A program made the translations under genes and the position numbers. From the NCBI GenBank assembly GCA_964636545.1, contig CAZWSR010000008.1, positions 1 to 34,886 on the forward strand: DNA of 34,886 nt. The letters run 5' to 3'. Below are positions 1 to 32,570 of this stretch, piece after piece. The stretch is from Candidatus Undinarchaeota archaeon (lineage in GTDB: Archaea; Undinarchaeota; Undinarchaeia; Undinarchaeales; UBA543). Each line of letters opens with the position of its first letter. Within the stretch, counting starts at the first letter, position 1. Below the pieces are notes generated by a model. The model saw only the letters and a list, made by a program, of their open reading frames with translations. It did not search any database and was not told the DNA's origin.

Positions 1-147
1 AATCCATGAAGCCATATTCGGAGTTACTGGTGTGTGGTACAGCACTCTTGCTATATTATTCGAAAGCCGCCTGTGAAGTGCACGAGTCAACACTTGGTCG
101 TTTTCTCTTTTTGGTATTACAACTTTTTCCTTTTGTTCTTTTTTCAC
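1..147 (-). CDS. CDP-alcohol phosphotransferase family protein, N-terminal part (runs off the window)
   Basis: Not in the ORF track. GTG at 147 overlaps the TGA of the radical SAM gene (GTGA), with SD-like AGGTGA at 160-155. Manual translation gives MKKEQKEKVVIPKRENDQVLTRALHRRLSNNIARVLYHTPVTPNMASWI, open to position 1. R-x-LS..IA..L..TPVTPN is the typical lead-in of CDP-alcohol phosphatidyltransferases. The catalytic DxxDG...D motif would lie outside the window. Confidence 0.7.
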   Translation of the reverse strand, partial: MKKEQKEKVVIPKRENDQVLTRALHRRLSNNIARVLYHTPVTPNMASWI

Positions 148-1634
148 TTTTTATTCACCTTTGGTTCGTATTTTTCAAAATACAAGTCTGCCAGTTTTTT
201 GAAAATAGTATTACCTTCCTCATCAAATTTCTCTGCTTTTTCAATTTCTGGCCAATACTCTTTTGGAAGATTAACATATAGTAAAAAGGTTCTCTGTAAG
301 CCCTCAACTTGTTTTGCAGTAAGGTGTGGCATGTTCAGCTTAACATCTCGTCTGTAATCGCCTGCAACAGCATCTTTGTCCATATAACCTTTTTCAACTG
401 CAACATTACGCAAGTGAGTTCCACGATAAGCACAGAACACATTTATGATACTTTTCACTCCAATTTTTCTGTTTAATTCAACTGTGTCAAAATAAAGTTC
501 TCGTGTTTCGTCAGGGAAACCAACAATGTTATTTGCAAAACATAACAGGCCAGCTTTTTTCGCTGCTTCAAATGCTTTTATGATTACCTCATTTGGTATG
601 TCTCTATTCAAAACTTTTTTTCTGAATTCGTAATTGCCGTGCTCCACACCCATACTAAGTCGTTCACATCCAATTTCTCTTAATTTTTCAGCAACATCAT
701 CATTAATTGTTTCAACACGCATTTGTGCCCAGAATGGGAGCTTGAACTCCTTGTACCTTTCACAAAACTCTTCAAATCTAGCATATCCGCCCTGCATGAA
801 ATTCTCTGCAATCAAATAAGGATACTGTAATCCATATTTCTCTACTCTGAATTTTAGTTCTTCAAAAAATTTGTCAAGATTTCGCTGTCTTGCGTAAAAC
901 CTATCACCTTTGTGCATGTCTTGAAGTTTTGCATTACAACAATAAGCACATCTGTGAACACAACCACGGTTCAGTTCTATTGGTCCGCTAACCCAGTGTT
1001 TTCCTCCAAATGCCTTGTACAATCTTTCTTTTTCATAAATTGTCCAGTCTTGCATTGGCAACGTGTTCATGTCAATAAGAGGGCGCTTTGGATTTTTTAT
1101 TATTTCACCATTCTTCTTGATCCATAGATTTTTTATGTGACTGTAATCCTCATTTTTATCAAGACAATTTGCAAGTTCAACAAATGCTCCTTCTCCTTCT
1201 CCAACACAAATCATGTCAACACAATCTTGTGAAATAATATATTCTGGCGCCATTGTTACTTGAATCCCACCAACAATTTTTGGAATATCTAAGTCTTTTA
1301 TACTATTGAGAAGTTTCAATCCAATCTCTTGAGTTGTTTCAACAATTGACAAACCAATAAGGTCTGGCTTGTACTCATCAATCATATTTTTGAAATCTTC
1401 ACTCATATCTGTCTTTTTTTCTTTAAGTCCATATTCCTGCAGATTTGTGCTTTTGACCTGTAAGGTTTCAATTCTCGCATCATCACCTGTTCTTTCTACG
1501 GTTTTGTAAAATGTAGTGTCAAACAGTTTTGTATCATGTCCTGCTTTTTTCAAACAAGCAGACAATAAAGAAAGACCAGTTGGTATAAGATTATCCATAA
1601 AACTGTTTGCATACACCAACAATATCTTAGTCAT
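144..1634 (-). CDS. Cobalamin-binding radical SAM protein (class B methyltransferase-like)
   Basis: N-terminal B12-binding-type motifs (PTGLSLLSACLKKAGH, IVGGIQVT, VDMICVGEGE) and the radical SAM motif RGCVHRCAYC (CxxxCxxC), plus GVEHG and IVGFPDET motifs. Confidence 0.9.
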   Translation of the reverse strand: MTKILLVYANSFMDNLIPTGLSLLSACLKKAGHDTKLFDTTFYKTVERTGDDARIETLQVKSTNLQEYGLKEKKTDMSEDFKNMIDEYKPDLIGLSIVETTQEIGLKLLNSIKDLDIPKIVGGIQVTMAPEYIISQDCVDMICVGEGEGAFVELANCLDKNEDYSHIKNLWIKKNGEIIKNPKRPLIDMNTLPMQDWTIYEKERLYKAFGGKHWVSGPIELNRGCVHRCAYCCNAKLQDMHKGDRFYARQRNLDKFFEELKFRVEKYGLQYPYLIAENFMQGGYARFEEFCERYKEFKLPFWAQMRVETINDDVAEKLREIGCERLSMGVEHGNYEFRKKVLNRDIPNEVIIKAFEAAKKAGLLCFANNIVGFPDETRELYFDTVELNRKIGVKSIINVFCAYRGTHLRNVAVEKGYMDKDAVAGDYRRDVKLNMPHLTAKQVEGLQRTFLLYVNLPKEYWPEIEKAEKFDEEGNTIFKKLADLYFEKYEPKVNKK

Positions 1635-2364
1635 TTTCTTGTTTATCTCCTATTAGTGTCTTATAAATTTTATTCTTCGCTCTTTCAAGATCTTCTGGAA
1701 AGTCAATTTCAATCCAAGGTAGTTTTTCAGTTGGAACAATTTTTATTTCTCCACCTTTCTTTGCTAAATTTGTCAAAGCTGATGTGTCATAGTCCATAAA
1801 CTGGCTTTCACCAAGCAACAATTCAATTTCTGGAACTAGTTTTTTCCATCCAGCTGATGTGAATTTAATAATTCCTGTCCATTCTCCAGCTGCTTCATTA
1901 AGCGGAATTGCTTTACTAGACTCAAGCAGGTTTCCATTTTCATCCAGTTTAACTTTCATTGCTTCTTCATCAAAATCATCAGTGTCTGTAACAAGAACAA
2001 TATCTCCTTCTGAATCAATTGCTTTTTTTATCAGCCCATCATGGAAAAGCAAGTCGCTGTGCAAATAAATAAACGGTTCGTCTCCTACTGCTTCTTTTGC
2101 TAGCCAAAGTGTAGCCATGTTGTTTGTTGTTGCAAAAAATGGATTGACAATATAAGTTACTGTGTCACCAAGTTTCTCCTGAATTTGTTCTTTTTTCCAT
2201 CCAGTTACAATTATAATGTCTGTAATCCCGTGTTTTTTCAGATTTTCAATTGTTAAATCAAGTAAAGTTTTTCCTTCAGTAATTTCAGAAAGGCATTTTG
2301 GAATCTCAGCATCATTCCCGTACAATCGGGTTCCGCGTCCTGCTGCAACAATTACTGCTTTCAT
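1627..2364 (-). CDS. LicC/PntC-like phosphonate (or phosphocholine-type) cytidylyltransferase
   Basis: NTP-transferase motifs AAGRGTRL...IPKCL, NPFFATTNN, HSDLLF, EAMKV, GEWTGI and WIEIDFPEDL. Coupled to both neighbours. Confidence 0.85.
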   Translation of the reverse strand: MKAVIVAAGRGTRLYGNDAEIPKCLSEITEGKTLLDLTIENLKKHGITDIIIVTGWKKEQIQEKLGDTVTYIVNPFFATTNNMATLWLAKEAVGDEPFIYLHSDLLFHDGLIKKAIDSEGDIVLVTDTDDFDEEAMKVKLDENGNLLESSKAIPLNEAAGEWTGIIKFTSAGWKKLVPEIELLLGESQFMDYDTSALTNLAKKGGEIKIVPTEKLPWIEIDFPEDLERAKNKIYKTLIGDKQEND

Positions 2365-3317
2365 CTTAGTATTTTCTTGAAAATATTAATCAAGTCCTCC
2401 TTTGTAACTGGTTTTGGATTATTTTCCAAATGCATTTTGTCAGGGAACACAACTTCTGCTAACTCTTCAGCTGTTCCTTTAATCTCCACATTTCCTAATC
2501 CAGTGTCTGTAATTACCTTTTTAATTTGTTGTAAAAGTTCAGGATCTGTTCCATTAAAGTCCATTGCGTGTGGTAGTACAATTGCTATTGCTTCTCCATG
2601 TGGAATTCCTTGATTTGAAAGTGGGTAAGATAATCCATGTGCAAGTGTGGTTCCTGAACTACTGAAAGCCATTCCAGCTAACAAACTCGCATAAGACATC
2701 CATTCTCGTGCTTTCTTGTCACCAGTAATTGCTTTATTGAGATTTTCTTTAATTGTTTCAATTGCTTCTTTTGCAAGGAACTTGGAAATTTCATTACTCT
2801 TTTTTGAATCATGACATTCAACAGCGTGAGCAAGAGCATCAATGCCAGTGCAAGCAGTTAGTTTCTCAGGCATTGTAAATGTGAGTTCAGGATCAACAAT
2901 AGCAACATCTGGAACAAGTTTTTCATTCGTGAATCCTTTCTTTTTTCCATCAACTTTCAAAACTGAGCTGTGAGTTACCTCGCTTCCAGTTCCAGCAGTT
3001 GTTGGAATCATAATCTTTTTTGCATTCAGTTCCATTGCAACGTATTTTGCAACATCAATAACTGAGCCGCCGCCAAGTCCAATAACAAGATCTGCACCAA
3101 GTGCTTTTGCTTTTTCAACTGTTTCCATACTTGGTTCTGGTTCAACATCAGAGAAAATCTTATTTTCACCTAACATTTCTTTGATTTTGTCAACTGGACC
3201 TCTTGTAAGCATTCCTTTAGAAGTAATTAGTAAAACATCAGTTCCATCAACATATTCAGATAGTTTGTTGATAGCTCCCAACTCAAAGAGTATTTGCTTA
3301 GGTAATAGCAATTCCAT
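2361..3317 (-). CDS. Iron-containing (group III) alcohol dehydrogenase, probable phosphonoacetaldehyde reductase making 2-hydroxyethylphosphonate
   Basis: GLGGGSVIDVAK, IPTTAGTGSEVT and metal-ligand segments DALAH, AHGLSYPL, IPHG. The substrate is inferred from the pepM/ppd context (PhpC/FomC-like role). Confidence 0.85.
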   Translation of the reverse strand: MELLLPKQILFELGAINKLSEYVDGTDVLLITSKGMLTRGPVDKIKEMLGENKIFSDVEPEPSMETVEKAKALGADLVIGLGGGSVIDVAKYVAMELNAKKIMIPTTAGTGSEVTHSSVLKVDGKKKGFTNEKLVPDVAIVDPELTFTMPEKLTACTGIDALAHAVECHDSKKSNEISKFLAKEAIETIKENLNKAITGDKKAREWMSYASLLAGMAFSSSGTTLAHGLSYPLSNQGIPHGEAIAIVLPHAMDFNGTDPELLQQIKKVITDTGLGNVEIKGTAEELAEVVFPDKMHLENNPKPVTKEDLINIFKKILR

Positions 3318-3340
3318 ACAAAACAGGTGTTGGAATTGGG

Positions 3341-3379
3341 TATTTTAAGGTTATGAATAGTATATCACAACTTTAATAA
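3341..3379. promoter_or_regulatory. Back-to-back archaeal TATA boxes of the divergent phosphonate operons
   Basis: Minus-strand TTAAAATA (3348-3341) lies 24-31 nt before the ATG at 3317. Plus-strand TTTAATAA (3372-3379) lies about 30 nt before the ATG at 3407. Spacing fits leaderless transcripts. Confidence 0.55.
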
Positions 3380-3406
3380 CCACTTTTCAAAACACTTTTC
3401 TTACAA

Positions 3407-3883
3407 ATGGTTAATACTGGCGAATTTATTGCCAAACTTTCAGAACTTGGATACAACTTCTACGCTGGAGTGCCTTGCTCTATTTTCAAAACTCTAATCA
3501 GTCAGCTTGAGTCAGGAGAAAACTACATTCCAGTAACTCGAGAAGATGAAGGTCTTGGAATGTGCTCAGGGGCTCAGCTTGCTGGAAAAACGCCAGTAAT
3601 GATTATGCAGAACTCTGGACTTGGAAATTCAATAAATGTTCTGTCCTCACTTCTTTTACTTTACAAAATCCCAACCTTGATGCTGATTAGCTGGAGAGGA
3701 GAAACAAAAGAGGATGCTCCAGAACATTGGGTAATGGGAGAGTCAATGACAAAACTACTTGATTCAATTGGAGTTCCATATTTTATTTTTGAAACACTTG
3801 AAGATTTAGAAAAAGCAAATGCAAAAATGCAAGAAACAAATCAGCCAGTTGCAGTTATTTTCAAAAGAGGTACACTTGAATGA
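3407..3883 (+). CDS. Phosphonopyruvate decarboxylase, alpha subunit (ComD-like split ThDP enzyme)
   Basis: GVPCS, REDEGLGMCSGA, MQNSGLGN and ISWRG...APEH motifs of the Ppd/ComD pyrimidine-binding domain; upstream of PEP mutase. Confidence 0.85.
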   Translation: MVNTGEFIAKLSELGYNFYAGVPCSIFKTLISQLESGENYIPVTREDEGLGMCSGAQLAGKTPVMIMQNSGLGNSINVLSSLLLLYKIPTLMLISWRGETKEDAPEHWVMGESMTKLLDSIGVPYFIFETLEDLEKANAKMQETNQPVAVIFKRGTLE

Positions 3884-4440
3884 AAACACAAGAAGCAGTT
3901 TCAAAAATCATATCACTTTTGAAAGGTGATGAAGTTATTATTTCAGCAAATGGTTTCATTAGCAGAGAACTTCACGACACTGGCGATAATGAGCGAAATT
4001 TCTACATGATTGGTTCAATGGGTATGGGTGCTTCAATCGGTGCTGGAATTGCACTTAGTTCGCAAAAGAAAGTTGTTGTTCTTGATGGCGACGGTAATGT
4101 TCTAATGAACTTGGGTGCGTTGGCAACAATTGGCAACAAGAAGCCAGAGAACTTCTTACATATTGTTATTGACAATGGTGTTTACGAATCAACAGGAAGC
4201 CAAAAAACAGTTTCTCCAAGCATTGAGCTTGAAAATGTTGCAAAAGCAGCTGGATACGTTAATTGTGTTAAAGTAACGACTATTGAAGAATTAGAAACAG
4301 CACTTGAAAATACTCTTAACAACAATCCAACTGGGCCTGTCTTTATCCGCGTAATAGTTGATGCAGGCAAGAGAGAAGTTGGAAGAGTGCAAATTTCACC
4401 TGAAGAAATGTCAAATCGGCTTAGAACCTACCTTCCATAA
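3880..4440 (+). CDS. Phosphonopyruvate decarboxylase, beta subunit (ComE-like)
   Basis: FYMIGSMG and the ThDP-binding motif DGDG...DNG.YESTG.Q; ATGA overlap with the alpha subunit gene. Confidence 0.85.
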   Translation: MKTQEAVSKIISLLKGDEVIISANGFISRELHDTGDNERNFYMIGSMGMGASIGAGIALSSQKKVVVLDGDGNVLMNLGALATIGNKKPENFLHIVIDNGVYESTGSQKTVSPSIELENVAKAAGYVNCVKVTTIEELETALENTLNNNPTGPVFIRVIVDAGKREVGRVQISPEEMSNRLRTYLP

Positions 4441-4473
4441 TCTTTTTAATACAAAATCAGGACTTGAAATCTA

Positions 4474-6096
4474 ATGACCAAAGCAAAAAAACTCCGTGAA
4501 CTGTTTGAAAGCAAGGATCTTGTACGGATCGTTGGAGCTCATAATGGATTAACTGCAAAACTTGTTGAATTAAATGAATTTGATGGTGTATGGGCTTCTG
4601 GTTTAGAAGTTTCTGCATCCCACGCAGTTCCTGATGCTAATATTCTTACAATGTCTGATTATCTTGCAGCTGCAACTAGTATGAATGATGCTACAAGCAT
4701 TCCAGTTGTTGTTGACTGCGATACTGGATACGGCAATTCAATGAATGTTATCCGAATGGTTAAGAAATTTGAAGATGCTGGCATTGCTGCTGTTTGCATG
4801 GAGGACAAGAAATTCCCAAAAACAAACAGTTTACTTGAAGGTGGAAAACAGGAATTAGCTCCAATTGCAGAATTTGTTGGAAAAATAATGGCTGCAAAGA
4901 ATGCTCAGGAGACAGAAGAGTTTATGGTTATTGCTCGAGTAGAAGCTTTGATTGCTGGATGGGGTCAGGAAGAAGCACTCAAGAGAGCACGAGCTTATGC
5001 AGATGCTGGCGCAGATGCAATTTTTATTCATTCTAAAAAATCAGATGGAAAAGAAATTGAGGATTTCTTAAAGGCCTGGAATAATTACAAGCCAGTTGTT
5101 CTGGTTCCAACAAATTATCCAACTTTCACAGAAGCGAAGATGAAAGAGTACGGTGTTAAGCTTGTTATTTATGCTAATCAAGGAATTCGTACAATTGTAA
5201 AACATGTTAATGAAACTTTTGCAGAAATTCGAGAAAAAGGAATTACTGAAATTGGTTCTAAAATCGCTAGTGTGCAAGACCTTTTTGCATTACAGGAAAT
5301 GGACAAATTCCGAGAAGATCAGGATAAATTTGTTAGAACAAATGAGCCAGTTAAGGCAATTATTCCAGCTGCTGGTGACAGAAGTATTGAACCAAGTTTG
5401 AAAGAATTGCTTCAGGACAGGCCACTTACTATGCTTGATGTTAATGGAAAATCAATTTTGCAAAGAAGTGTGGAAGCTTTGAAACGCTGTGGTGTTGATG
5501 ATATCAACGTTATTGGCGGTTACAAAGCAGAGCATATTGTTGCTGATGACATTAATTTAATTGTAAATGAAAATTATGAGCAAGGACACATTATGGATTC
5601 AATTGAAAAAGCTGGAGACAATTACGCTAGCAAGAACCTCATTATTTTCTCTGATATTATTTTTGATAATGAAATTCTCGAGAGATTACTCAAAACAGAG
5701 AATGACATTACAGTTGTTATTGACAGTTCAATTAGAAAAACAGAAGAGCGATCAGATATTGAATTAGTAATTGCTGAAAACGCGCCTTTGGCTGGTGACC
5801 GGGTGATTAATGTTAAACGCCAAAACAAAATTTTGAATATTGGCAAAGGTCTTGACCGTGGAAAAGCAAATTATGAATTTATTGGAATGGTTTTACTTTC
5901 AAAAACTGGAATGGAACAGTTGATGAAGGTTTACAAAGATTCTGGAGATAAGAAAATGGGATTAGCCCAGGCGCTTCAGAAACTAATTGACAATGGTGAG
6001 AAAGTTAATTCACTTGAAATCAATAAGGGCTGGAGCGAAATTCACGATTTTGGCGATTACAAAGAAGTTTCAGAGATGTTGGCTCATGAAGGTTAA
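4474..6096 (+). CDS. pepM: Phosphoenolpyruvate mutase fused to a C-terminal nucleotidyltransferase-like domain
   Basis: Diagnostic PepM motif EDKKFPKTNS (EDKxxxxxNS), plus GAHNGLTAK, WASG, DCDTGYG and ARVEALIAG. From about aa 292 a LicC-like fold follows (AIIPAAG, GYKAE, FSDIIF, EFIG, WSEIH). Confidence 0.95.
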   Translation: MTKAKKLRELFESKDLVRIVGAHNGLTAKLVELNEFDGVWASGLEVSASHAVPDANILTMSDYLAAATSMNDATSIPVVVDCDTGYGNSMNVIRMVKKFEDAGIAAVCMEDKKFPKTNSLLEGGKQELAPIAEFVGKIMAAKNAQETEEFMVIARVEALIAGWGQEEALKRARAYADAGADAIFIHSKKSDGKEIEDFLKAWNNYKPVVLVPTNYPTFTEAKMKEYGVKLVIYANQGIRTIVKHVNETFAEIREKGITEIGSKIASVQDLFALQEMDKFREDQDKFVRTNEPVKAIIPAAGDRSIEPSLKELLQDRPLTMLDVNGKSILQRSVEALKRCGVDDINVIGGYKAEHIVADDINLIVNENYEQGHIMDSIEKAGDNYASKNLIIFSDIIFDNEILERLLKTENDITVVIDSSIRKTEERSDIELVIAENAPLAGDRVINVKRQNKILNIGKGLDRGKANYEFIGMVLLSKTGMEQLMKVYKDSGDKKMGLAQALQKLIDNGEKVNSLEINKGWSEIHDFGDYKEVSEMLAHEG

Positions 6097-7238
6097 ATTA
6101 ACCCATTAACTGCTTCAACAACTTTTCCTGGTTCTAATCCAGTAAGACATTTTCTTTCTTTACATCTCAAATAATTAGCAGTAAATGAATCCACACAAGG
6201 ACAACAATCCACTTCGCTTTGTACAACAATAACCTTTTCACCATACGGTTTTGCCTTTTCAGAATCTGTTGGTCCAAAAATACTAACAACGGGCACTCCA
6301 AGTGCTGAAGCAAGATGTCCTGGTCCAGTATCTGCACTAATAAAAACATCACAATTCTTAATCAAAGCAGCTGTTTCTGGAATTGTTTTGTCAAAAAAGA
6401 GCATTGGCTTCTCCTGCATCATTGAATGAATGCTTTTTCCAGCAGTTTCTTCTTCTGGTCCGCCAATTATCATGATTTTTGCATTGTGCTTTTTGCCAAG
6501 TTCAGTACAGGCCTCTGCAAATCCATGTTGAGTCCATTGTTTGTACCAAGTTTCTGGAACAGATCCAGTATGAACACCAATAAGTTTCTGATTTTCACTA
6601 AGTCCTTTTATTTTCAAAAGTTTTCTAGCAGTATCAATATTCTCTGCTGGTAATTCCAGCTTGATACTTTTTTCAAAAATTGTTATTCCAATTTGTCGCA
6701 AAATATCTAAATTCACTTCAACACAATGTTTCTTATTGCTATTTGCAACAATATTCTGGTAAACTCCAGTATTAAACATTCCAACTTTCTGGCTTGCACC
6801 TGCGCGGTTCTTAATTCTTGTAAAGAATGCCGCCATTCCACTAAACTTTCCACTTGGATGTGTTAATATTGACAAATCAAATTTCCTGTCCTTCAAACTT
6901 CGCATGAATTTAATTTTCTTGAAAATTCCTTTGTGTGATTCAACATCAAACATTACAATATCATCAACAAGTCCTTTGTTTGCTTCCATTAGCTCAACAA
7001 CTGGCTTGTAAGATGCAAGAAGAGTGATTTTCGCTTCTGGCCAGTTTTTTTTAATTGTTTTGAGCATTGGGACTGTAAAAATCATATTTCCAAGTCCCAT
7101 TAAATTAATTACAAGAATATTTTTGAAAGGCCCAGTAACTGGTTTTCTTTTTTTGAAAAGTAAATCATATCCTTTACTATCTATCCCAATAAGATTGTCA
7201 AAAATTCTAACATGAAGTGGTTTTTTTATGTTTTTCAT
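6093..7238 (-). CDS. Glycosyltransferase family 9 (heptosyltransferase-like)
   Basis: ILVINLMGLGN, WPEAKITLL, FDLSI, HCVE, KQW, IIGGPEE, DTGPGHLASALGVP.VSIFGPT and a C-terminal CCPC..C..C motif; last gene of the heptose operon. Confidence 0.85.
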   Translation of the reverse strand: MKNIKKPLHVRIFDNLIGIDSKGYDLLFKKRKPVTGPFKNILVINLMGLGNMIFTVPMLKTIKKNWPEAKITLLASYKPVVELMEANKGLVDDIVMFDVESHKGIFKKIKFMRSLKDRKFDLSILTHPSGKFSGMAAFFTRIKNRAGASQKVGMFNTGVYQNIVANSNKKHCVEVNLDILRQIGITIFEKSIKLELPAENIDTARKLLKIKGLSENQKLIGVHTGSVPETWYKQWTQHGFAEACTELGKKHNAKIMIIGGPEEETAGKSIHSMMQEKPMLFFDKTIPETAALIKNCDVFISADTGPGHLASALGVPVVSIFGPTDSEKAKPYGEKVIVVQSEVDCCPCVDSFTANYLRCKERKCLTGLEPGKVVEAVNGLI

Positions 7239-7246
7239 ATTTGTTC

Positions 7247-7305
7247 AGGCACTGGGCACTAGGCCGTAGGTCAGACCTACTACCCACTGCCTACTCCCTA
7301 CTACC
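7247..7305. repeat. Inverted tandem-heptamer element A (RGGYAST / RCCYACT units)
   Basis: AGGCACT GGGCACT AGGCCGT AGGTCAG | ACCTACT ACCCACT GCCTACT CCCTACT ACC. GC-rich and contains the hldC stop codon. Confidence 0.85.
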
Positions 7306-7767
7306 TTTTCTGATCTTTTCAAGTATATTAGTTGTTGAAGCTCCGTCAACTAACTGCAATATTTTTAATTCTCCGCCATATTCATCCAGAGCTTTTGTTT
7401 CAATAACATCACTTTCTTTATAATCTCCACCTTTTGCTTGAATATTAGGGCGCAACTCACGAATAATCTCTTCTGGTGTATCTTCATCAAATATAACAAC
7501 ATAATCAACTGTTTCCAGAGCATCTAGCATCTCTGCTCGCTCATTTTGGGGCACAATTGGCCTGTTTTCGCCCTTTAATCTCTTAACTGATTCATCACTA
7601 TTAATCCCAACAATTAGTACATCTCCTAGTGCCTTTGCTTCTTTCATGTAGCGAACATGCCCGACATGCAGGATATCAAAACAACCATTTGTGAAAACAA
7701 TTCTTTTCCCAGCATTTTTCAATGCAGTTATCTTGTTTTTTGCTTCTTCTCTTGTCAGCACACTCAT
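7291..7767 (-). CDS. rfaE2: D-glycero-beta-D-manno-heptose 1-phosphate nucleotidyltransferase (HldC/RfaE2)
   Basis: VFTNGCFDILHVGH (HIGH-type), GINSDESVKRLKGENRP, FDEDTP, KGGDY and STTNI motifs. Confidence 0.92.
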   Translation of the reverse strand: MSVLTREEAKNKITALKNAGKRIVFTNGCFDILHVGHVRYMKEAKALGDVLIVGINSDESVKRLKGENRPIVPQNERAEMLDALETVDYVVIFDEDTPEEIIRELRPNIQAKGGDYKESDVIETKALDEYGGELKILQLVDGASTTNILEKIRKGSRE

Positions 7768-8684
7768 TTCATCGCCTCCCTCAGGTCAATTTTATTAACG
7801 CGTCTTTGCCCAATAACAAATCCTGCTGCCTTATTTGCAAGTTTAGCTGATTCAATATCATCAAGTCCAGAAGAAAGTGCAACAGCGAGAACAGCAACAA
7901 CTGTGTCGCCAGCTCCTGTAACATCGTAAACCTCTTTTGCTTCAACTGGAATCTGTTCTGCATTTCCATTTGAAACAAGCATCATTCCTTCTGCTCCCAT
8001 TGTCATCAAAACCTTTGTTTCAAGCTGTTCTGCTAGCCTTTTCCCAATTTCTTCAGAGGTTCCGTTCTGGCTCTGAACAATTTCTCTAGATTCTTTTAGA
8101 TTTGGAGTAATTATTTCAACTCCTTTGAAAATTTCAGCATTAACTGGTTTTGGATCAACAAGAACTTTCTTTCCTGTCTGCTTTGCAGCTTCAACAATTT
8201 TTTCAGTAATAACACCTTTTGCATAATCAGAAAGCACAATTATGCTTGCGTCTCCTGCTTTTTCAATGAGTGTTTTGATTATTTTTTCTTCATCTTCTGC
8301 ACTAATTCTGTCTTTCTTTTCATTATCAACTCGCAAAAGCTGCTGAAAGTCCTTTGTAACAATTCTTTTCTTCACAGTTGTTGGCCTGTTCTTGTCAATA
8401 ATTATTGAATCTGTTAAAATTCCCATTTCCTCAGCAAGTTTCAAAAATTCTTTTCCTTCCTGGTCGTCTCCAATAACTCCAATAAGATCAACTTGTCCAC
8501 CAAGTTCAGAAACATTCTTTGCAACATTTGCTGCACCACCAAAAACATCCTTAACTTGCTCAAGATTTACAACTGGTACTGGAGCTTCAGGTGAAACTCT
8601 GCTAGCATCTCCAATCAAATAGCGGTCCAGCATCAAGTCTCCTACAATCAATACTTTAACTCCTTCTGGTTTTAAGCCATTCAT
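7764..8684 (-). CDS. rfaE1: D-glycero-beta-D-manno-heptose 7-phosphate kinase (HldA/RfaE1, PfkB family)
   Basis: VGDLMLDRYLIG..SRVSPEAPVPVV, GGAANVA, RPTTVKKR, QQLLRVD, LSDYAKG, VDPK, TPN and DVTGAGDT. Confidence 0.92.
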   Translation of the reverse strand: MNGLKPEGVKVLIVGDLMLDRYLIGDASRVSPEAPVPVVNLEQVKDVFGGAANVAKNVSELGGQVDLIGVIGDDQEGKEFLKLAEEMGILTDSIIIDKNRPTTVKKRIVTKDFQQLLRVDNEKKDRISAEDEEKIIKTLIEKAGDASIIVLSDYAKGVITEKIVEAAKQTGKKVLVDPKPVNAEIFKGVEIITPNLKESREIVQSQNGTSEEIGKRLAEQLETKVLMTMGAEGMMLVSNGNAEQIPVEAKEVYDVTGAGDTVVAVLAVALSSGLDDIESAKLANKAAGFVIGQRRVNKIDLREAMK

Positions 8685-9223
8685 TCAAGAACCTCGCAAA
8701 TTTCATGAAGTATGAAAGCGTGCATTTCCTGTATTCTTGGAACTTCTTTATTTTGTACTTTTACACTAAAATCACATTCTTCTGCAAGTGTTCCAACATT
8801 TCCAGTCAGTGCAATTGTTTTGATGCCTATTTCTTTTGCTTTCTGAGCTGCTTTAACAACATTTTCTGAAGTTCCACTTGTGCTAATAGCAATTAAAACA
8901 TCTCCAGTTTTCCCAAGTGCTTCAACTTGTCGCTCAAAAACCTTGTCATAACTATAATCATTTGCTATTGCTGTCATTACAGCTGGGTTTGCATTTAGTG
9001 AAATACCTTCCAATGGCTTGCGATCTTGTTTGTATTTGCAAACTAATTCTGCAATAAAATGATTAGCATCTGAAGCAGATCCGCCATTTCCGCAAGCAAG
9101 AACTTTGTGTCCGCCAAGCAAACACTCCTTAATCATGTTTGCAGCATTCTCAACTTCGTTCTTCATGCTGAACGCAGACCGCGCTAAGCTTTCTAATTTT
9201 TTAGCATGTTCTTCAAATGTCAT
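8681..9223 (-). CDS. gmhA: Sedoheptulose 7-phosphate isomerase
   Basis: CGNGGSASDANHFIAEL, TAIANDYSY..VFERQVEAL, ISTSGTS.NV and PRIQEMH. Confidence 0.95.
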   Translation of the reverse strand: MTFEEHAKKLESLARSAFSMKNEVENAANMIKECLLGGHKVLACGNGGSASDANHFIAELVCKYKQDRKPLEGISLNANPAVMTAIANDYSYDKVFERQVEALGKTGDVLIAISTSGTSENVVKAAQKAKEIGIKTIALTGNVGTLAEECDFSVKVQNKEVPRIQEMHAFILHEICEVLE

Positions 9224-9271
9224 ACTTTTAGAACTCCTGATTTCGTTATTTAAAGTTAATGAAATGCTAAT

Positions 9272-10243
9272 TTATCTAATTCCAGCCCGTATTTTGCTCT
9301 TCAAACCACTTCCGATTTTAGAATAAGCTCCTGCAGCTAGTTTCAGTGAACTACTGGAATAAATCCGCGTATAATCAGCAATCTCTCCACCCCAACCAAG
9401 TTTGAAGTTTCGAATACCTTCAATGCCTGCTCCAAGCATGTCGTACTTCTCAAAACCGTTTTCATAAGCCCATTTTATCAAGTGCCACTGAATTACATTA
9501 TTTGGATAAAGTTTTGCAAGCTCGCCTTTTATTGAAGCTCCTGTCCAATAATAAATTGTTTTTCCAGAATATGGGAAAGCAGAAACTCCAATTGTTTTTC
9601 CTTGATATTTTGCAAATAAAAGCTTGATTTTGTTTTTTGCATGAAGCCCCTGAATTATTTTTGTGTAAAATTCTTTTGGAAGTGGGTTGTAATCACTTGC
9701 TTTGTATGTCTCAGTTAGCATTTTATGATATTCTTCAATTGCTGTATCAGAATAATCTTCTTCAACTGTAACTCCATCTTTCTCAGCCTTTTTCACACAG
9801 TAGCGGTGTCCTTTTTTGATTATTTTAAAATGCTCATCAGCATTTGGCTGGTTGAATTTGGTGATAATTGTCTGAGCTTTTTCAGCAGAGCCGAATGTTG
9901 TGTTTGTTCCAGGCGGAAGTATCATGAAAAACTTTCCAATCTTACTTTTGAGTTGTTTCAGATAATCATTTATTTCACTGAGCCCCTGCGCCCCGGTGCC
10001 CCTGCACAAAATTCCTAGGTATGCTGTTTCAGTTCCGAAAATCGGTGAAAAACCAATTTCAATTGGTCCCATCTTTTTTCTGAACAACGGACAAATTGCA
10101 TTTTCAAAAACAGCAATTTCACATTTTGTTCCAAGTGATTGCAGTGCAGATAACCACTCATAAGTGTGGAAAGGTGTAGAATTTTCTAATTGTGAATATT
10201 CATCCAGAATTTCCCGCGATTCTTCCAAACTCTTAATTTCCAT
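9272..10243 (-). CDS. FemABX/BioF2-like GNAT-fold acyl or aminoacyl transferase
   Basis: STPFHTYEWL, RYCVKKAEKDGVTV, YYWTGAS, PNNVIQWHLIKWAYENG..KYDMLG...GIRNFKLGWGG. Start moved from 10297 to ATG 10243, which has AGGAG upstream and an 11-nt overlap with the previous gene. Confidence 0.8.
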   Translation of the reverse strand: MEIKSLEESREILDEYSQLENSTPFHTYEWLSALQSLGTKCEIAVFENAICPLFRKKMGPIEIGFSPIFGTETAYLGILCRGTGAQGLSEINDYLKQLKSKIGKFFMILPPGTNTTFGSAEKAQTIITKFNQPNADEHFKIIKKGHRYCVKKAEKDGVTVEEDYSDTAIEEYHKMLTETYKASDYNPLPKEFYTKIIQGLHAKNKIKLLFAKYQGKTIGVSAFPYSGKTIYYWTGASIKGELAKLYPNNVIQWHLIKWAYENGFEKYDMLGAGIEGIRNFKLGWGGEIADYTRIYSSSSLKLAAGAYSKIGSGLKSKIRAGIR

Positions 10244-11135
10244 TTTCTTTCTCTTCTCCTGAAGTCTTGAAAGCTTGAGGGCTTGAAAGCTTCTCATTTA
10301 CCCTCGCAGCAATTTTCATGCAACTTGTTCTCCAGCATTTCTCATCTTTTGAAACAAGATCAACTAACCAAAGATAGAATTCTCTTTGTCTTGGCAAGTC
10401 CTCAGAAAGTGAGCGCTGATGCACGATTATGTTTATTATTTTGTTTTCCTGTTTTGCTTTTTGAATAAGTGCTTCCATTTTCTCTTTTGCTTTCTTAACT
10501 TTCAAATTTTCATAAAATGGGCTGAACATGTAAGTGTCCATTAAGTGAATTGGGATTTCAACAAGACCTTCTGGTGTTTTGTATGCTTGTTTCAGTTCTC
10601 CTGATTTGTCAAACTCAGTTGAATCATATTCATAACCAGATTCTTTCAAGAATTTCAGCATTTCTGGCTTCTGCGCAAGATAATGCATTCGTATTCCTCG
10701 TGGTTTTCTTGTAAGAATGTTGTACAGGGTTGCGTATTCGTCTTTCATTTCATTCAAATTGTCTTGAAACTGCCCATGCACTCCAATTTCAAAATTAAAT
10801 GGAATATTTCGAATACTTCCTTTTGCTTGATCTCTTGTATACCTCAAACCGCGGCCTGAATTCATTGCAAAAAAGAATGTGCTTGGAATTCTGTGTTTAA
10901 AATCAAGATCGCACATCTCATCAACACAATTCCATGAATCTTTTTTTGTGAAAATGGAATTTTTTACAACTTTTAGATAGCTCAGCATACTTCTTCGTAA
11001 TCGGAACACTTCAATCTTGCAAGTAGCTTGGAATTTTATAAGTTCCCAAATACTGTGCTCTTTGTGGCTAAGATGATCTACATCATGGGTGATACAAATT
11101 CCCCAATTATACCCTTCTGGAAGCACTGAGCTCAT
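10233..11135 (-). CDS. Polysaccharide deacetylase family protein (CE4-like)
   Basis: CITHDVD, PSTFFF, EIGVHG, GIRMHYL, YDST, LVEIP and IVHQ motifs. Confidence 0.8.
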   Translation of the reverse strand: MSSVLPEGYNWGICITHDVDHLSHKEHSIWELIKFQATCKIEVFRLRRSMLSYLKVVKNSIFTKKDSWNCVDEMCDLDFKHRIPSTFFFAMNSGRGLRYTRDQAKGSIRNIPFNFEIGVHGQFQDNLNEMKDEYATLYNILTRKPRGIRMHYLAQKPEMLKFLKESGYEYDSTEFDKSGELKQAYKTPEGLVEIPIHLMDTYMFSPFYENLKVKKAKEKMEALIQKAKQENKIINIIVHQRSLSEDLPRQREFYLWLVDLVSKDEKCWRTSCMKIAARVNEKLSSPQAFKTSGEEKENGN

Positions 11136-23632: not shown

Positions 23633-24589
23633 CTATCTGGAAGAGCGCAAAATATAGGTTTTCCCACGCTTTTCTCGTTTTATTTTACCTTTTTTTAGCA
23701 AATCTTTCACATTTCTTGTAACTTTTGGTCTTGAAAAACCAGTAAGCTTCGGCAGGTCTTGTTGTTTTAGCTTGCCTTTTCCTTGTGATACTAAGTTCAA
23801 TATAGTCTGCTCATCATCGTCTATTATTGCAGTTGTTACTTTTGGACCGCGGATTTTCTTGAGCATTACTGCACCCCATAAACTTGATACTAAAAATATC
23901 GCCATTCCACCAATTATTAGGCCAATCATGAAAAATGTACTCTTTTTTGGGTCTTCTCTCTTAATTGGACGTACATTTGTTTGCTGAAGCCCCCCAAGGT
24001 TTGCAAGATCTTGTTTTACTGAGCTTGAAGCATCTCCTATGAGGATAATTCGCTTTGCTCCCAGACGTTCTATTGCAGTTTTTATCTCGTCTGGTAGCTT
24101 TTCTTCTTCTGTAATCAGTAGCGGACTACCATACTCTATTGCTGTTCTAGCTGCTAACATTAGCTCTCCTGCTCCCCCTTGTGTAACAACAACTGTTTCT
24201 GAGTTTGTCCAGAGTGTCATTGCAACTCGTGCAGATGTTCCATAACGGTTCCAGTCCCAAATACGAGTGCTAATTAGCCCAAGATTGTCTAGTTTTGCTT
24301 CAATACTCTTTGGAATTGCCTCTGTTCCGCCAATTATTAGAATATCTGTGTATCCTTGTTCTTTGTAGCCCTCTAATTCATCTTCAAGTTCATCAATTAG
24401 CCATCTTTGAGTTACTGTAACTAAAGGAATACCTGCTTTGCTAGTGTATGCTTGTGCAACTAGCATGTCAACTGGTATGTCGCCTCTAACAATTACTGCA
24501 TCAAAATTACTTTGTGCAAAAGCGCAAGCTGGCAAGGCAATGAGGATTGCCAGTATTATAAGAATGGAACGATTGCAAAACGATTTCAT
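23633..24589 (-). CDS. Membrane-anchored putative regulator: signal peptide, cell-wall-binding repeat 2 (CWB2)-like domain, TM helix, C-terminal winged HTH
   Basis: Signal peptide ending ACAFA; CWB2-like motifs ILIIGGTEAIP, RIW..NRYGTSARVA and PLLIT...LP......I..LG.KRIILIG; TM segment FFMIGLIIGGMAIFLVSSLW; wHTH DEQTIL..V....G...QQDLPKLTGFSRPKVTRNVKDL..KGKI.R.K.GKT. Confidence 0.75.
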   Translation of the reverse strand: MKSFCNRSILIILAILIALPACAFAQSNFDAVIVRGDIPVDMLVAQAYTSKAGIPLVTVTQRWLIDELEDELEGYKEQGYTDILIIGGTEAIPKSIEAKLDNLGLISTRIWDWNRYGTSARVAMTLWTNSETVVVTQGGAGELMLAARTAIEYGSPLLITEEEKLPDEIKTAIERLGAKRIILIGDASSSVKQDLANLGGLQQTNVRPIKREDPKKSTFFMIGLIIGGMAIFLVSSLWGAVMLKKIRGPKVTTAIIDDDEQTILNLVSQGKGKLKQQDLPKLTGFSRPKVTRNVKDLLKKGKIKREKRGKTYILRSSR

Positions 24590-25653: not shown

Positions 25654-26508
25654 TTGGAAATACTAAAACGCTTTGACAATGGAAGTATCCTTGCGCTAGT
25701 CAGTATTGACAAAATAAGGGGGCACGAGGATGTTAAGGAAGATTATTTAGCGGAGCTGACTGCGCGAATTGAAGAAGATGGTGAGCTTTACAAGCCGATT
25801 TTAGTTGTAAATAATGATTTTGTTGTTCTTGATGGTCACCACAGGTTTAATGCATGCAAAAACATTGGTTGCAAGCGAATTACAGCATTTTTAATTGATT
25901 ATTTCAGGGAAGATGTGCAAGTTGAGGCATGGTATCCCCTAATTTTGGATAAAGAAGAAGCAGATCATGTTTTTGAAACTGTTAAACAAGCTGGTTTTGA
26001 AGTTTCTGAAGTTGAATCAGAAGCAAAAATGCAGGAGCTTGTTGATTCCAGACAAGCATCAATTGGTATGATTGTTCATGACAGTCCATTTAAATATTTT
26101 ATAACAAACCGAACAGACGCACTCACTTTTTCTGAAGCAATGAAAGCAATTGTTTCTGATTTACGAGCTAGGCAAAAGCTTCCTGTTCTAAAATATTACA
26201 ATAATCCAGATGAAGTTAAGGAGAAATTGAATCTTGGTGAAGCACATATGCTTATTAAAGTTCCAAAAATCTCAAAGGAAAGTGTAATTACTCGGTCAAA
26301 TATGGAAGAGAAATATCCACCAAAAACCACAAGGCACTTAGTTCCTGATAATGTTGAAGAATATCATATTCCACTTGATAGATTGAAAGAACCAAATCCA
26401 GTTGAGGACTTTGAAGCTTCTGAAGAAATACTGGCTGCTTATGAAAAACACATGGAAGAGCACTCATCTACTCCTTATGAATCTTCAATTGAATGGAAAT
26501 TTGAGTGA
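25654..26508 (+). CDS. serK: SerK-like ADP-dependent serine kinase (ParB/Srx-fold)
   Basis: HE, KPILV, DGHHR, DYF...V.V..WYP and PPKTTRH match the motif pattern of Thermococcus SerK. TTG start, with an acidic C-terminal extension. Confidence 0.7.
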   Translation: MEILKRFDNGSILALVSIDKIRGHEDVKEDYLAELTARIEEDGELYKPILVVNNDFVVLDGHHRFNACKNIGCKRITAFLIDYFREDVQVEAWYPLILDKEEADHVFETVKQAGFEVSEVESEAKMQELVDSRQASIGMIVHDSPFKYFITNRTDALTFSEAMKAIVSDLRARQKLPVLKYYNNPDEVKEKLNLGEAHMLIKVPKISKESVITRSNMEEKYPPKTTRHLVPDNVEEYHIPLDRLKEPNPVEDFEASEEILAAYEKHMEEHSSTPYESSIEWKFE

Positions 26509-30519: not shown

Positions 30520-32091
30520 TTAACCAATCACCGCAATTCTGACATGGTGGAGTCCGCTTGCCTGAGTTGAAGTTACTTTAATGTAATTTATATTTCCAGT
30601 TGGTTTTAATTTAAAAATATGTGACTTGTACTCAACTGTATCATCTACAGAATGTATTTTTTCCTGTTTGCCAATTTCAATTAAACCATTTTCTGTTTCT
30701 CCAGCTTCTACTGTTATTGTTGATTCCTGGTCTACTGTATTTACTGTGAATATAACAAGAAGCTCAGGATTTGCTAGTGTTTTTGTTGTTTGGAATTTTG
30801 CACTGTCATATGTGCCATCTCTTGAAACCCAATATGGTTCTAGGTATGTATATGGCTGGCAGAAATTTTCAACATATATCTGTGACTCTTTTATGTTCTC
30901 GCTTGTTTCTACTTTTAAATAACGGTATGGGACAGTAACATCTATTCTGTCTCCAAATATTGGAACTTCGCTTTCTCCACTTTCTCTGTAATTAATATCT
31001 ATTGTATCTCCAGTAGTCCAGTCTTCATTTTCTTCTGTTCTGAAATAGGTGTTAACTGTAATACTTTGCTTAGCATTTGTTGAGCATTCACATCTTCTTC
31101 TATCTGCACCTTCTGCTGAATTTATATCACCAACAAACACACCAGTTTTCCCAACTGAAGTGCATTTCTCTGCGCAGGAAACTGGCGTGTCCAGATTTGG
31201 ATCAGTACAATCTGTTTCTAGATGCGCCCAACATTTTGTTGATTTCCAAGTATTGTCCCAACAACAATAATATGTTTCTTTTTCAGGCTGTATCGCGTAA
31301 AATAATTCATCTCCAGCTGGCAGGTTTGTTCCAAAATCAAAAATAGTTTCTTTTCCTCCAGCGTCCAATACATTTCTCTTATATGATCCTGAAACATCTG
31401 GGTCTGTTGTTAATTCTATAATACTTGGTTCTGTATAAGAATAACTCATATTTACTCCACTTTTAGTAACTGTGATAGGATCTTTTAATTCATAATTAAC
31501 TTGGAGTTTGTCATTATATGGGCATAAGCATCTTACTGGATCAGTTTGGTCTTCGATAGCTCCGCCAGAATCCACTCCAGCTATTGTTCCACCACTGCAG
31601 AACTCTCCACAAGAGTCACACTCAGTTGCTGCATGAAGGTAAGTATTCAACCCAACTTGTTTCCATACTTGCGGATTCCACACACAATAATATGTTTCAT
31701 ATATATTTGAAAAAACAGCCTCTTTTATTTCCGGCAATGGATTCTCTCCATATGTAACTGTTTTCACATCCTCTTTTACTCTATTCACAAGTGCTGTATT
31801 CAGATCAGCATATGTGGCTGCATTTAATCTTGATCCACACACACTTCCTGATCCATATCCAACATCTTCAAGTGCACTAAAAGTTTTACTTGCAATAAAC
31901 TCATCATAATACATCCGCATACTTTCAAGATCATTTGCTTGATCAATACTGTATGTATAAAAGTCAGCTCTTACCATCGCACTTCCTGAAACATTATTCA
32001 CAAAAAATCCTGTTCCAAGAGTTATACCTAGTGCAAGAAGTAATAGTGCAAATGGTTTCAATTGTGCTTTTCTATTTTTTAATATGTCCAT
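30520..32091 (-). CDS. Secreted or membrane-anchored Cys-rich protein with a class III-like signal peptide
   Basis: N-terminus KNRKA/QLKPFALLLLALGITLG and two copies of a Cys-rich module starting ETYYC.W. Confidence 0.7.
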   Translation of the reverse strand: MDILKNRKAQLKPFALLLLALGITLGTGFFVNNVSGSAMVRADFYTYSIDQANDLESMRMYYDEFIASKTFSALEDVGYGSGSVCGSRLNAATYADLNTALVNRVKEDVKTVTYGENPLPEIKEAVFSNIYETYYCVWNPQVWKQVGLNTYLHAATECDSCGEFCSGGTIAGVDSGGAIEDQTDPVRCLCPYNDKLQVNYELKDPITVTKSGVNMSYSYTEPSIIELTTDPDVSGSYKRNVLDAGGKETIFDFGTNLPAGDELFYAIQPEKETYYCCWDNTWKSTKCWAHLETDCTDPNLDTPVSCAEKCTSVGKTGVFVGDINSAEGADRRRCECSTNAKQSITVNTYFRTEENEDWTTGDTIDINYRESGESEVPIFGDRIDVTVPYRYLKVETSENIKESQIYVENFCQPYTYLEPYWVSRDGTYDSAKFQTTKTLANPELLVIFTVNTVDQESTITVEAGETENGLIEIGKQEKIHSVDDTVEYKSHIFKLKPTGNINYIKVTSTQASGLHHVRIAVIG

Positions 32092-32570
32092 GTGATTAAT
32101 GTTGTTTGAGCGGTTTTTCCATCTTCTATAAACATTGTGTGTTCTGTGTATGTCGCTTTCCTTGCGTCCTCTGGATTAATTCCTATAGTCAAATATTGTC
32201 TACCTTCATAAATAATATAGAACTTGTAATTATCATGAAGTCCATCTAGATTTTTTTGTATTTCTTCTTTAACGTTTTCTTCATTATCACTATCATCTTC
32301 TTTTAAAAGTTTTTTAATAACATCACCCATTTTTTGATCATCCTCTGTTGTGATTTGCATAAGAACATTCAGGGAGTTTGAAACTGCTCCAGCATTTTCA
32401 AAAATTTCTATTTTTTCCTCAACTTTTTCACCACCACCACCTCCGACACCTATTGTTATTACTACCATCACAATCAAAAAACCAATAGCAAGGAGTACCA
32501 CCATTGACACTGGTATGTCTGCTGTAACTTCCATTCCTTTCTTATTTTTGAAACTTTGTTTGTATTTCAT
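32079..32570 (-). CDS. Pilin-like protein (class III-like signal peptide)
   Basis: KNKKG/MEVTADIPVSMVVLLAIGFLIVMVVITIG followed by a small soluble domain. Confidence 0.65.
   Translation of the reverse strand: MKYKQSFKNKKGMEVTADIPVSMVVLLAIGFLIVMVVITIGVGGGGGEKVEEKIEIFENAGAVSNSLNVLMQITTEDDQKMGDVIKKLLKEDDSDNEENVKEEIQKNLDGLHDNYKFYIIYEGRQYLTIGINPEDARKATYTEHTMFIEDGKTAQTTLITWTY

Follow-up and report, generated by a model that had tools for sequence, protein, structure and literature searches.

What does an archaeon make with a compact set of phosphonate genes that lies within a surface-glycan island, and where in the cell does the product go? The question is raised by a 34,886-nt stretch of DNA (hereafter the window) from a Candidatus Undinarchaeota archaeon. 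The window is an entire contig (C8) of an 840-kb, 39-contig genome (G000) that is 82.8% complete, and its first 6,096 nt hold a cluster of seven genes. Most of the phosphonate capacity of microbes is thought to serve the decoration of cell surfaces, with the transfer steps and the products largely unknown (PMC6697681; PMC8942020). The reading that we favor, at a probability of about 0.62, is that the cluster encodes a cell-envelope phosphonate tailoring pathway of this DPANN (Undinarchaeota-like) archaeon, in which a phosphonate would be synthesized, activated with CMP, optionally modified by a cobalamin (B12)-binding radical S-adenosylmethionine (SAM) enzyme, and esterified to an acceptor at the membrane. 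The cluster comprises the following features:

1..147, minus strand: CDP-alcohol phosphotransferase, first 49 codons; GTG start at 147, running off the contig end
144..1634, minus strand: B12-binding radical SAM enzyme, 496 aa; PF02310 at 51 bits and PF04055 at 66 bits
1627..2364, minus strand: free-standing nucleotidyltransferase (NTase) of the PntC/LicC type, 245 aa, candidate 2-hydroxyethylphosphonate (HEP) cytidylyltransferase; PF00483 and PF12804
2361..3317, minus strand: compact Fe-type alcohol dehydrogenase (Fe-ADH), 318 aa, candidate phosphonoacetaldehyde reductase; PF00465 at 124 bits and PF25137 at 116 bits
3318..3406, no strand: divergent intergenic spacer of 89 bp, read from the sequence
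3407..3883, plus strand: putative phosphonopyruvate decarboxylase (Ppd) alpha subunit (TPP_enzyme_N), 158 aa; TIGR03297 and TIGR03845 matches, and context
3880..4440, plus strand: putative Ppd beta subunit (TPP_enzyme_C), 186 aa; TIGR03297 as best match
4474..6096, plus strand: PEP_mutase::NTP_transf_3 fusion (PepM::NTase), 540 aa; PEP_mutase at aa 7-252 with 199 bits, NTP_transf_3 at aa 320-421

All seven genes lie where the original prediction had placed them, with the correction that only 49 codons of the transferase gene fall in the window and that the rest is on another contig (C11). The minus-strand genes overlap, as had been said, by 4, 8, and 4 nt from their coordinates. The divergent arrangement also holds, and on both sides of the 89-bp spacer AT-rich boxes of TATA-like appearance lie some 25-30 nt before the start codons; that a single shared promoter drives both arms is a supposition added to this layout. 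A scan for bacterial-type promoters and terminators, of a type not applicable to archaea, gave 16 sites versus 20.3 in shuffled sequences, i.e., no enrichment.

The contig had been taken to be archaeal, and it is so, without signs of chimerism: short contigs of the same bin carry archaeal small-subunit and large-subunit (LSU) rRNA, the window itself encodes archaeal-type proteins (an ApgM-type phosphoglycerate mutase, an AMP-phosphorylase-like protein, HTH_10, and DUF7343), and the same cluster recurs in two independent metagenome-assembled genomes (MAGs) of the genus (G017 and G018). A chimeric bin is unlikely, and was rejected, because the cluster is syntenic on the contigs of these two MAGs. 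As a separate observation, contigs C27 (L008) and C28 (L009) both cover positions 155-2163 of the archaeal LSU model with similar scores; therefore, two rRNA variants or strains are present in the bin.

The opening steps of the pathway can be assigned with the greatest assurance. PepM would convert phosphoenolpyruvate (PEP) to phosphonopyruvate, PpdAB would yield phosphonoacetaldehyde, and the compact Fe-ADH would reduce this to HEP, a route that homology and context together make very probable. The fusion protein divides into a PEP mutase (aa 1-290) and a PF12804 NTase (aa about 293-540), and the former contains EDKKFPKTNS at aa 110, fitting the EDKX5NS motif; EDKXXXXXNS sets Ppm apart from the other members of the isocitrate-lyase superfamily (PMC6697681, legend of Fig. 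2). Its best matches in the PDB are PEP mutases (5unc and 1m1b). Its score against TIGR02320 is 316-318 bits, with an equivalog cut-off of 319.55, and its congeneric orthologs score above that cut-off at 322-323. The identification of PepM in the original prediction is borne out by the motif, and the order PepM-Ppd-ADH-NTase suits the synthesis of HEP and CMP-HEP. The two thiamine pyrophosphate (TPP)-dependent subunits have about equal profile scores for two decarboxylases and are assigned to Ppd because they are adjacent to PepM; the beta subunit is best matched by TIGR03297 (196.7 bits, profile positions 172-360 of 360), with ComDE, the sulfopyruvate decarboxylase, at 186.4. A reading of these subunits as the sulfopyruvate decarboxylase of coenzyme M synthesis was rejected on gene context. 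The Fe-ADH is a shortened form, with internal loop deletions that it has in common with its ortholog in G018, and it retains the GGGS motif and the D/H/H/H metal ligands.

Activation would follow, with a PntC/LicC-type cytidylyltransferase (the free enzyme, the one fused to PepM, or both) making CMP-HEP, a step only slightly less secure than the preceding ones. The free NTase matches the PntC domain of Tde1415 (PDB 6pd1) over its full length (aa 2-239 to 4-240, E 1.6e-15), which is its best match in the PDB; it also matches LicC (1jyk) and has the canonical AAGRGTRL nucleotide-binding motif. The NTase domain fused to PepM is more divergent (LicC match at E 7.5e-5) and is conserved across nine related fusions. 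The PntC of Tde1415, from Treponema denticola, is fused to a 2-aminoethylphosphonate (AEP) transaminase (AEPT) and prefers AEP (PMC6697681), whereas the NTase of the window is free-standing and presumably acts on HEP. In the free NTase, His stands in place of the amine-binding Glu104 of Tde-PntC, and Asp in place of Glu196. The original prediction had likened this enzyme to the Fom1-type cytidylyltransferase of fosfomycin biosynthesis, and this part of it fails: the NTases of the window belong to PF12804/PF00483, i.e., the PntC/LicC type, but the cytidylyltransferase of Fom1 belongs to PF01467 (PMC6697681). The architecture differs as well, with an N-terminal PF01467 domain fused to PepM in Fom1 and a C-terminal PF12804 domain here.

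Between the genes for the NTase and the transferase lies that of the candidate C-methylase of the CMP-phosphonate. This enzyme is a class-B radical SAM protein (PF02310 with 51 bits at a cut-off of 32.1) in which the CxxxCxxC cysteines C225, C229, and C232 are invariant. Its AlphaFold model (pLDDT 92) has fold matches at TM 0.61-0.67 to the methylases TsrM, MgmA, CysS, and TokK and to the non-methylases AprD4 and OxsB. A look-up in the ESM Atlas returned only generic "B12-binding radical SAM" clusters. Among the candidates scored, 975 proteins belong to the family at E <= 1e-10, and of its 247 loci in species-representative genomes the best 80 were examined, with linkage defined as lying within 10 kb. 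The open reading frames (ORFs) of these loci were labeled by HMM and jackhmmer searches; single-linkage clustering fused PepM, Ppd, NTase, and the radical SAM enzyme via fusion proteins. By this measure, 21 of the 80 loci are phosphonate-linked: 16 with PepM, four with Ppd at the edge of the locus, and one with only AEPT at a contig end. The Fe-ADH is found in seven of these 21, the AEPT (an Aminotran_5 protein) in 10, and a CDP-alcohol transferase in 12. When five genomes were taken from the unlinked loci, bona fide PepM was present elsewhere in four; in one of the four, it probably lies just beyond the flank that was examined, if contig C51 is the contig of L025.

A FastTree phylogeny of 100 rows, 99 of them ORFs of 400-620 aa, places this linkage unevenly across the family; its supports are SH-like only, it comes with a long-branch warning, and it was built without the fused forms L021 (1059 aa) and L045 (874 aa) and without L042, L050, L063, L071, L074, and L077. 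The clade of the window's enzyme has nine rows with 98% support; phosphonate linkage holds for eight of them, and the remaining one comes from a 10-kb contig. Two small neighboring clades are likewise phosphonate-linked wherever the contigs are long enough, and a clade of 33 rows from Scalindua, Brocadiia, and Proteobacteria is so in only five. Within the window's clade, the transferase gene directly follows the orthologous radical SAM gene in five of nine cases, and the head-group enzyme is an ADH in three and AEPT in five; loci with AEPT in place of ADH retain the NTase-radical SAM-transferase trio. Further, three kinds of fusion were found, namely Ppd::radical SAM in Woesearchaeota (L045:8849-11473), radical SAM::AEPT::class-I methyltransferase also in Woesearchaeota (L021:9977-13156), and HAD::radical SAM (the HAD hydrolase protein P0106). 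To judge from these sequences, the fusion proteins of relatives link the radical SAM enzyme to phosphonate synthesis itself.

Two other features of the family deserve record in their own right. Phosphonate loci of Woesearchaeota (L017), Omnitrophota (L018), and Planctomycetia (L019) have 4-7 paralogous B12 radical SAM genes within 21 kb; in these the head group might conceivably be alkylated iteratively or several times. A recurrent module in L022-L043 and others (Scalindua, Brocadiia, and Rhodospirillales; e.g., L041:7037-12365) combines a molybdopterin oxidoreductase of about 700 aa, a xylose-isomerase-like TIM barrel of about 288 aa, and a B12 radical SAM enzyme with LPG_synthase_TM or a 3-hydroxyisobutyrate-dehydrogenase-like protein. 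In L029, L031, L041, L047, and L054 this module is linked to PepM or Ppd, and in Scalindua it is unlinked.

The congeners provide a natural comparison of the cluster with and without this enzyme. Among the 17 species genomes of the phylum, PepM is found in three, all of them in the window's genus, and in none of the 14 others (72-98% complete); the cluster is a lineage-specific acquisition because of this confinement. A search of other archaeal MAGs for the same gene set, as the original prediction had advised, yielded the syntenic cluster in both congeners. G018 has the complete set at L011, the closest public locus, with 88% identity to the window in the radical SAM enzyme, 90% in PepM, and 77% in the transferase. 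L011 also has an additional class-I SAM methyltransferase gene (L011:12208-13029, 273 aa) between the transferase gene and a GT-B glycosyltransferase (GT) gene, absent in the window's genome. G017 has the order of the window (GT9, PepM::NTase, PpdB, PpdA, Fe-ADH, NTase, transferase, GT-B) without an orthologous radical SAM gene, its best genome-wide match scoring 156 bits versus 805 in G018; the NTase and transferase genes of G017 share 4 nt. Conservation with pepM, on which the original prediction had staked its inclusion of both genes, was thus found for the transferase in both congeners and for the radical SAM enzyme in G018; the two genes are also found in many phosphonate loci of DPANN archaea and bacteria. 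Because G017 keeps the same cluster without the radical SAM gene, this step is, on gene content, optional: a dispensable tailoring placed between activation and transfer. The identities of G017 to the window are 94% in PepM, 80% in the NTase, 80% in the ADH, and 47% in the transferase. These values hint that transferase specificity co-varies with the presence of the radical SAM enzyme; they are a hint and not proof because the GT-B gene is equally divergent (47-52%).

For the truncated transferase gene, a genome-wide PF01066 search gave a match at the very start of C11, beginning at profile position 13. The remainder of the gene is C11:1-579 (46 bits, cut-off 22), so that the whole protein has about 239 aa. 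The ends of C8 and C11 have 6 nt in common, and against the full-length ortholog in L011, the window's piece covers residues 12-60 and that of C11 residues 58-245, a 2-residue (6-nt) overlap without a gap. The motif DxxDGxxARx8GxxxDxxxD is complete in the C11 translation (DMVDGDLARAKNMLSKYGHLLDSTLD); D(x)2DG(x)2AR(x)8G(x)3D(x)3D is what we take to be the signature of the CDP-alcohol phosphotransferase family. As a matter of assembly, the break falls within this gene, and the transferase and adjacent radical SAM genes are the part of the cluster that varies among congeners; therefore, strain heterogeneity may underlie the break. The L011 ortholog has its best PDB matches in AF2299 (4o6m, E 2.8e-23) and IPCT/DIPPS (4mnd, 5e-12). 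With these the window's transferase has in common the juxtamembrane helix and the full catalytic motif; it differs in lacking their fused cytosolic domain and in its proposed donor, a CMP-phosphonate. In IPCT/DIPPS, a cytidylyltransferase is paired with a transferase that uses a soluble CDP-alcohol.

From these elements, the later half of the pathway can be proposed. At even odds, the radical SAM enzyme would tailor the CMP-phosphonate by C-methylation to CMP-2-hydroxypropylphosphonate, as Fom3 does, this being the likeliest form of an optional step. The AF2299/DIPPS-like transferase would then probably take the CMP-phosphonate as donor, release CMP, and esterify a hydroxyl group at the cytoplasmic face of the membrane. 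A CMP-phosphonate donor is proposed because of the two cytidylyltransferases, the kinship of the transferase with enzymes using soluble CDP-alcohols, and the recurrence of the trio with AEPT; in the AEPT loci the transferase must use such a donor because AEP is without a hydroxyl. The acceptor would be either an archaeol-type lipid, in a Kennedy-like reaction giving a phosphonolipid, or a lipid-linked glycan made by the co-directional genes of C11 (a GT-B protein and nonulosonic-acid genes). Family precedent favors the lipid; the co-directional glycan genes, together with the Wzx-type flippases present in eight related loci, favor the lipid-linked glycan.

Several observations weigh against the reading of the cluster as an envelope-tailoring pathway. 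Every step is inferred from genes, and the pathway as proposed does not account for two cytidylyltransferases in one cluster. The Ppd alpha subunit scores 147.7 bits, just below the cut-off, for the sulfopyruvate decarboxylase alpha subunit ComD (TIGR03845) versus 123.4 for Ppyr-DeCO2ase (TIGR03297), and the Fe-ADH reaches 169 bits for Phn_Fe-ADH (TIGR03405), below the cut-off of 424. A Nealsonbacteria genome of the Candidate Phyla Radiation has the NTase-radical SAM-transferase trio and no PepM in the genome. CDP-alcohol phosphotransferases are not known to modify glycans, and we know of no precedent for a Kennedy-type archaeal reaction on free archaeol. Finally, the radical SAM enzyme has no match near the cut-off in NCBIfam (best HpnJ, 92 versus 578 bits), its nearest folds include non-methylases, and 59 of the 80 family loci are without PepM, Ppd, or AEPT within 10 kb.

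It is these last points that sustain the alternative that survives best, namely, that the phosphonate part is as proposed but the radical SAM enzyme acts on a sugar of the neighboring glycan, on the head group after its installation, or by non-methylating radical chemistry. We consider this unlikely. The fold neighbors AprD4 and OxsB, a dehydratase and a ring-contracting enzyme, the lack of any curated family above its cut-off, and the pepM-free loci with their other modules (Mo-oxidoreductase, xylose-isomerase-like TIM barrel, LPG_synthase_TM) all fit it. Set against these are the phosphonate linkage of all but one row of the window's clade, the Ppd and AEPT fusions that the radical SAM enzyme forms in relatives, the position of its gene between those of the NTase and the transferase with overlapping codons, and the four methylases among six distinct top structural matches (TsrM, MgmA, CysS, and TokK).

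A second alternative reverses the roles at the last step: in the classical direction, CDP-archaeol would be the donor and the hydroxyl of HEP or 2-hydroxypropylphosphonate (HPP) the acceptor, giving archaetidyl-hydroxyethylphosphonate, a phosphodiester lipid with a terminal phosphonate. The genome does encode the CDP-archaeol synthase CarS, HEP does have a free hydroxyl, and the C11 fragment on its own has its top score for archaetidylinositol-phosphate synthase (AIPS; 54.6 bits). This route is nonetheless improbable, as it would leave two in-cluster cytidylyltransferases without a role, the full-length transferase orthologs score higher for DIPPS (81.5 and 70.4 bits) and AF2299 than for AIPS, the trio is also found with AEPT, an enzyme that yields a product lacking a hydroxyl, and ordinary head groups are served by two further CDP-alcohol transferases of the genome. 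A housekeeping paralog on C3 resembles AIPS at 159 bits.

The weakest alternative, a soluble product in the form of a DIP-like phosphonate diester solute from an IPCT/DIPPS-like pair or of a fosfomycin-like antibiotic, has in its favor that IPCT/DIPPS is the best or near-best curated match of the NTase and the transferase, that the substrates of DIPPS are soluble, and that the order PepM-Ppd-ADH-cytidylyltransferase-radical SAM mirrors the upper fosfomycin route (PMC9088020), but it can be set aside as very improbable given that no homolog of FomD (DUF402), the CMP-HPP hydrolase of the fosfomycin pathway, was found in the genome (83% complete), that no epoxidase of the HppE/Fom4 kind is among the Pfam matches of the cluster, no genome-wide HppE search having been made, that the cluster lies inside a large surface-glycan island and shares its direction, and that Wzx-type flippases are found in eight related loci.

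How much of the envelope-tailoring pathway has a counterpart in known systems? Group 1 phosphonolipid neighborhoods reportedly go back to Yu et al. (2013), as related by Li and Horsman (2022). The combination of Ppm::PntC, PntC, and a CDP-alcohol transferase corresponds to this predicted "Group 1 phosphonolipid / Burkholderiales_CDP-OH" type, the product of which was never characterized (PMC8942020). The window's cluster resembles this type in having Ppm::PntC, a second, free PntC, Ppd, and a CDP-alcohol-type gene, with a predicted passage of the CMP-phosphonate to a membrane acceptor. It differs in that the Group 1 clusters are bacterial and make 1-hydroxy-AEP with an AEP transaminase and an alpha-ketoglutarate oxygenase, whereas Fe-ADH and the B12 radical SAM enzyme are present here, in a DPANN archaeon and within a glycan island. 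No Aminotran_5 or oxygenase domains were found in the scanned ORFs of window positions 144-9223 and C11:1-9176, the Fe-ADH standing in their place.

With the upper fosfomycin pathway of Streptomyces (Fom1, Fom2, FomC, and Fom3; PMC9088020), the cluster would have in common the series PEP to phosphonopyruvate, phosphonoacetaldehyde, HEP, and CMP-HEP and, after these, a class-B cobalamin radical SAM enzyme. Fom3 acts on the cytidylylated substrate only, requiring CMP-HEP and not HEP, which is a precedent for placing the radical SAM step after the cytidylyltransferase (PMC9088020). Fom3 is likened to the window's enzyme by its class-B fold and its position in the pathway, not by sequence, no Fom3 entry being among the enzyme's PDB or NCBIfam matches. 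The two systems part thereafter, with a membrane transferase here versus hydrolysis and epoxidation there. True Fom1-like proteins (PF01467-like domain::PepM of 432-446 aa, with an N-terminal domain of about 140 aa) do occur in seven archaeal loci of Nanoarchaeota, Woesearchaeota, and Methanosarcinales (L013:11485-12795, L026:8476-9774, L033:833-2134, L045:6688-8028, L046:6697-8007, L051:3588-4892, and L052:2996-4327). All seven have the radical SAM gene and five have Fe-ADH; in four, a free PF01467 gene of 177-185 aa is upstream of PepM, adjacent to it in three and two genes away in L013.

A set reported from a Methanoperedens Borg (Cobalt 308, 319, and 320) consists of PepM::cytidylyltransferase, a PntC-AEPT-like protein, and a CDP-alcohol phosphotransferase (10.1101/2024.11.05.622173). 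It is likewise associated with archaea, has a transferase without the cytosolic domain, and belongs to a surface-glycan region; it differs in being of the AEP type and described by structure prediction only, and the accessible portion of the preprint mentions no radical SAM enzyme (10.1101/2024.11.05.622173). The original prediction, in knowing of no characterized archaeal pathway of this type, overstated the novelty, the Group 1 layout having long been predicted (PMC8942020) and the archaeal Borg set reported (10.1101/2024.11.05.622173). Supplements were outside the scope of the literature searched (among them Table S1 and Fig. S4 of PMC8942020, with 12 archaeal neighborhoods, and those of the Borg preprint) and may hold similar clusters; within that scope, we found no account of a phosphonolipid or phosphonoglycan cluster with a cobalamin radical SAM enzyme, nor of phosphonate genes in Undinarchaeota. 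New here is that one DPANN archaeon combines the HEP branch with an AF2299-like transferase and with a B12 radical SAM enzyme from a phosphonate-linked clade; new as well are the fusions and the natural with/without variant as evidence that this clade acts on the phosphonate head group.

The surroundings of the cluster are dominated by glycan genes, which make up most of the remainder of the window. Convergent on pepM is a short minus-strand series that includes ADP-heptose genes:

6093..7238, minus strand: GT9 heptosyltransferase, convergent on pepM
7291..7767, minus strand: RfaE-II-like adenylyltransferase, an ADP-heptose gene
7764..8684, minus strand: PfkB kinase, an ADP-heptose gene
8681..9223, minus strand: SIS/GmhA-like isomerase, an ADP-heptose gene

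The position of GT9 beside pepM is kept in L011 (65%) and L093 (69%), and no GmhB-like phosphatase is among the annotated neighbors of the window's ADP-heptose genes (6093-9223). On the other side, C11 continues beyond the transferase with 11 further genes in the same direction as the minus-strand genes of the cluster. They include those for a 628-aa protein with a GT-B C-terminus, a WbuX-type amidotransferase (400 bits), HisH- and HisF-like proteins, NeuB, a CMP-sugar synthetase, GT2, a formyltransferase, and PIG-L, as well as an unannotated ORF (9173-10267). Elsewhere in the glycan island, window positions 9272-11135 and 23633-24589 encode a FemAB/GNAT-like acetyltransferase, a WbmS-like polysaccharide deacetylase, and a protein with CWB2 repeats and a winged helix. 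Five ORFs of the window, of 163-523 aa (25654-26508, 30520-32091, 32079-32570, 32573-33808, and 33793-34449), have no Pfam match at E <= 0.001.

The cluster presents a compact, testable system of seven genes with a control supplied by nature, a sister species that lacks the radical SAM enzyme and has a divergent transferase. Should the radical SAM enzyme methylate in the manner of Fom3, a reaction so far known from fosfomycin biosynthesis alone would turn out to be widespread in the envelope tailoring of uncultured archaea and bacteria, and new bound phosphonates, such as esters of 2-hydroxypropylphosphonate, would be predicted in groundwater and marine organic phosphorus. A symbiont-type archaeon with a genome of 0.84 Mb would then also rely on external cobalamin for the chemistry of its surface. 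A bolder version, which we offer as a speculation of low probability, is that the whole clade, which ranges over DPANN archaea, Methanosarcinales, Omnitrophota, and Planctomycetota, serves envelope decoration and not antibiotic synthesis by C-methylating CMP-activated HEP or AEP; that in the present archaeon a Kennedy-type transferase puts 2-hydroxypropylphosphonate onto archaeol derived from a host; and that larger, branched alkylphosphonates may be the products where a locus has up to six or seven paralogs. If this were true, the lipid of the present archaeon would be the first archaeal phosphonolipid.

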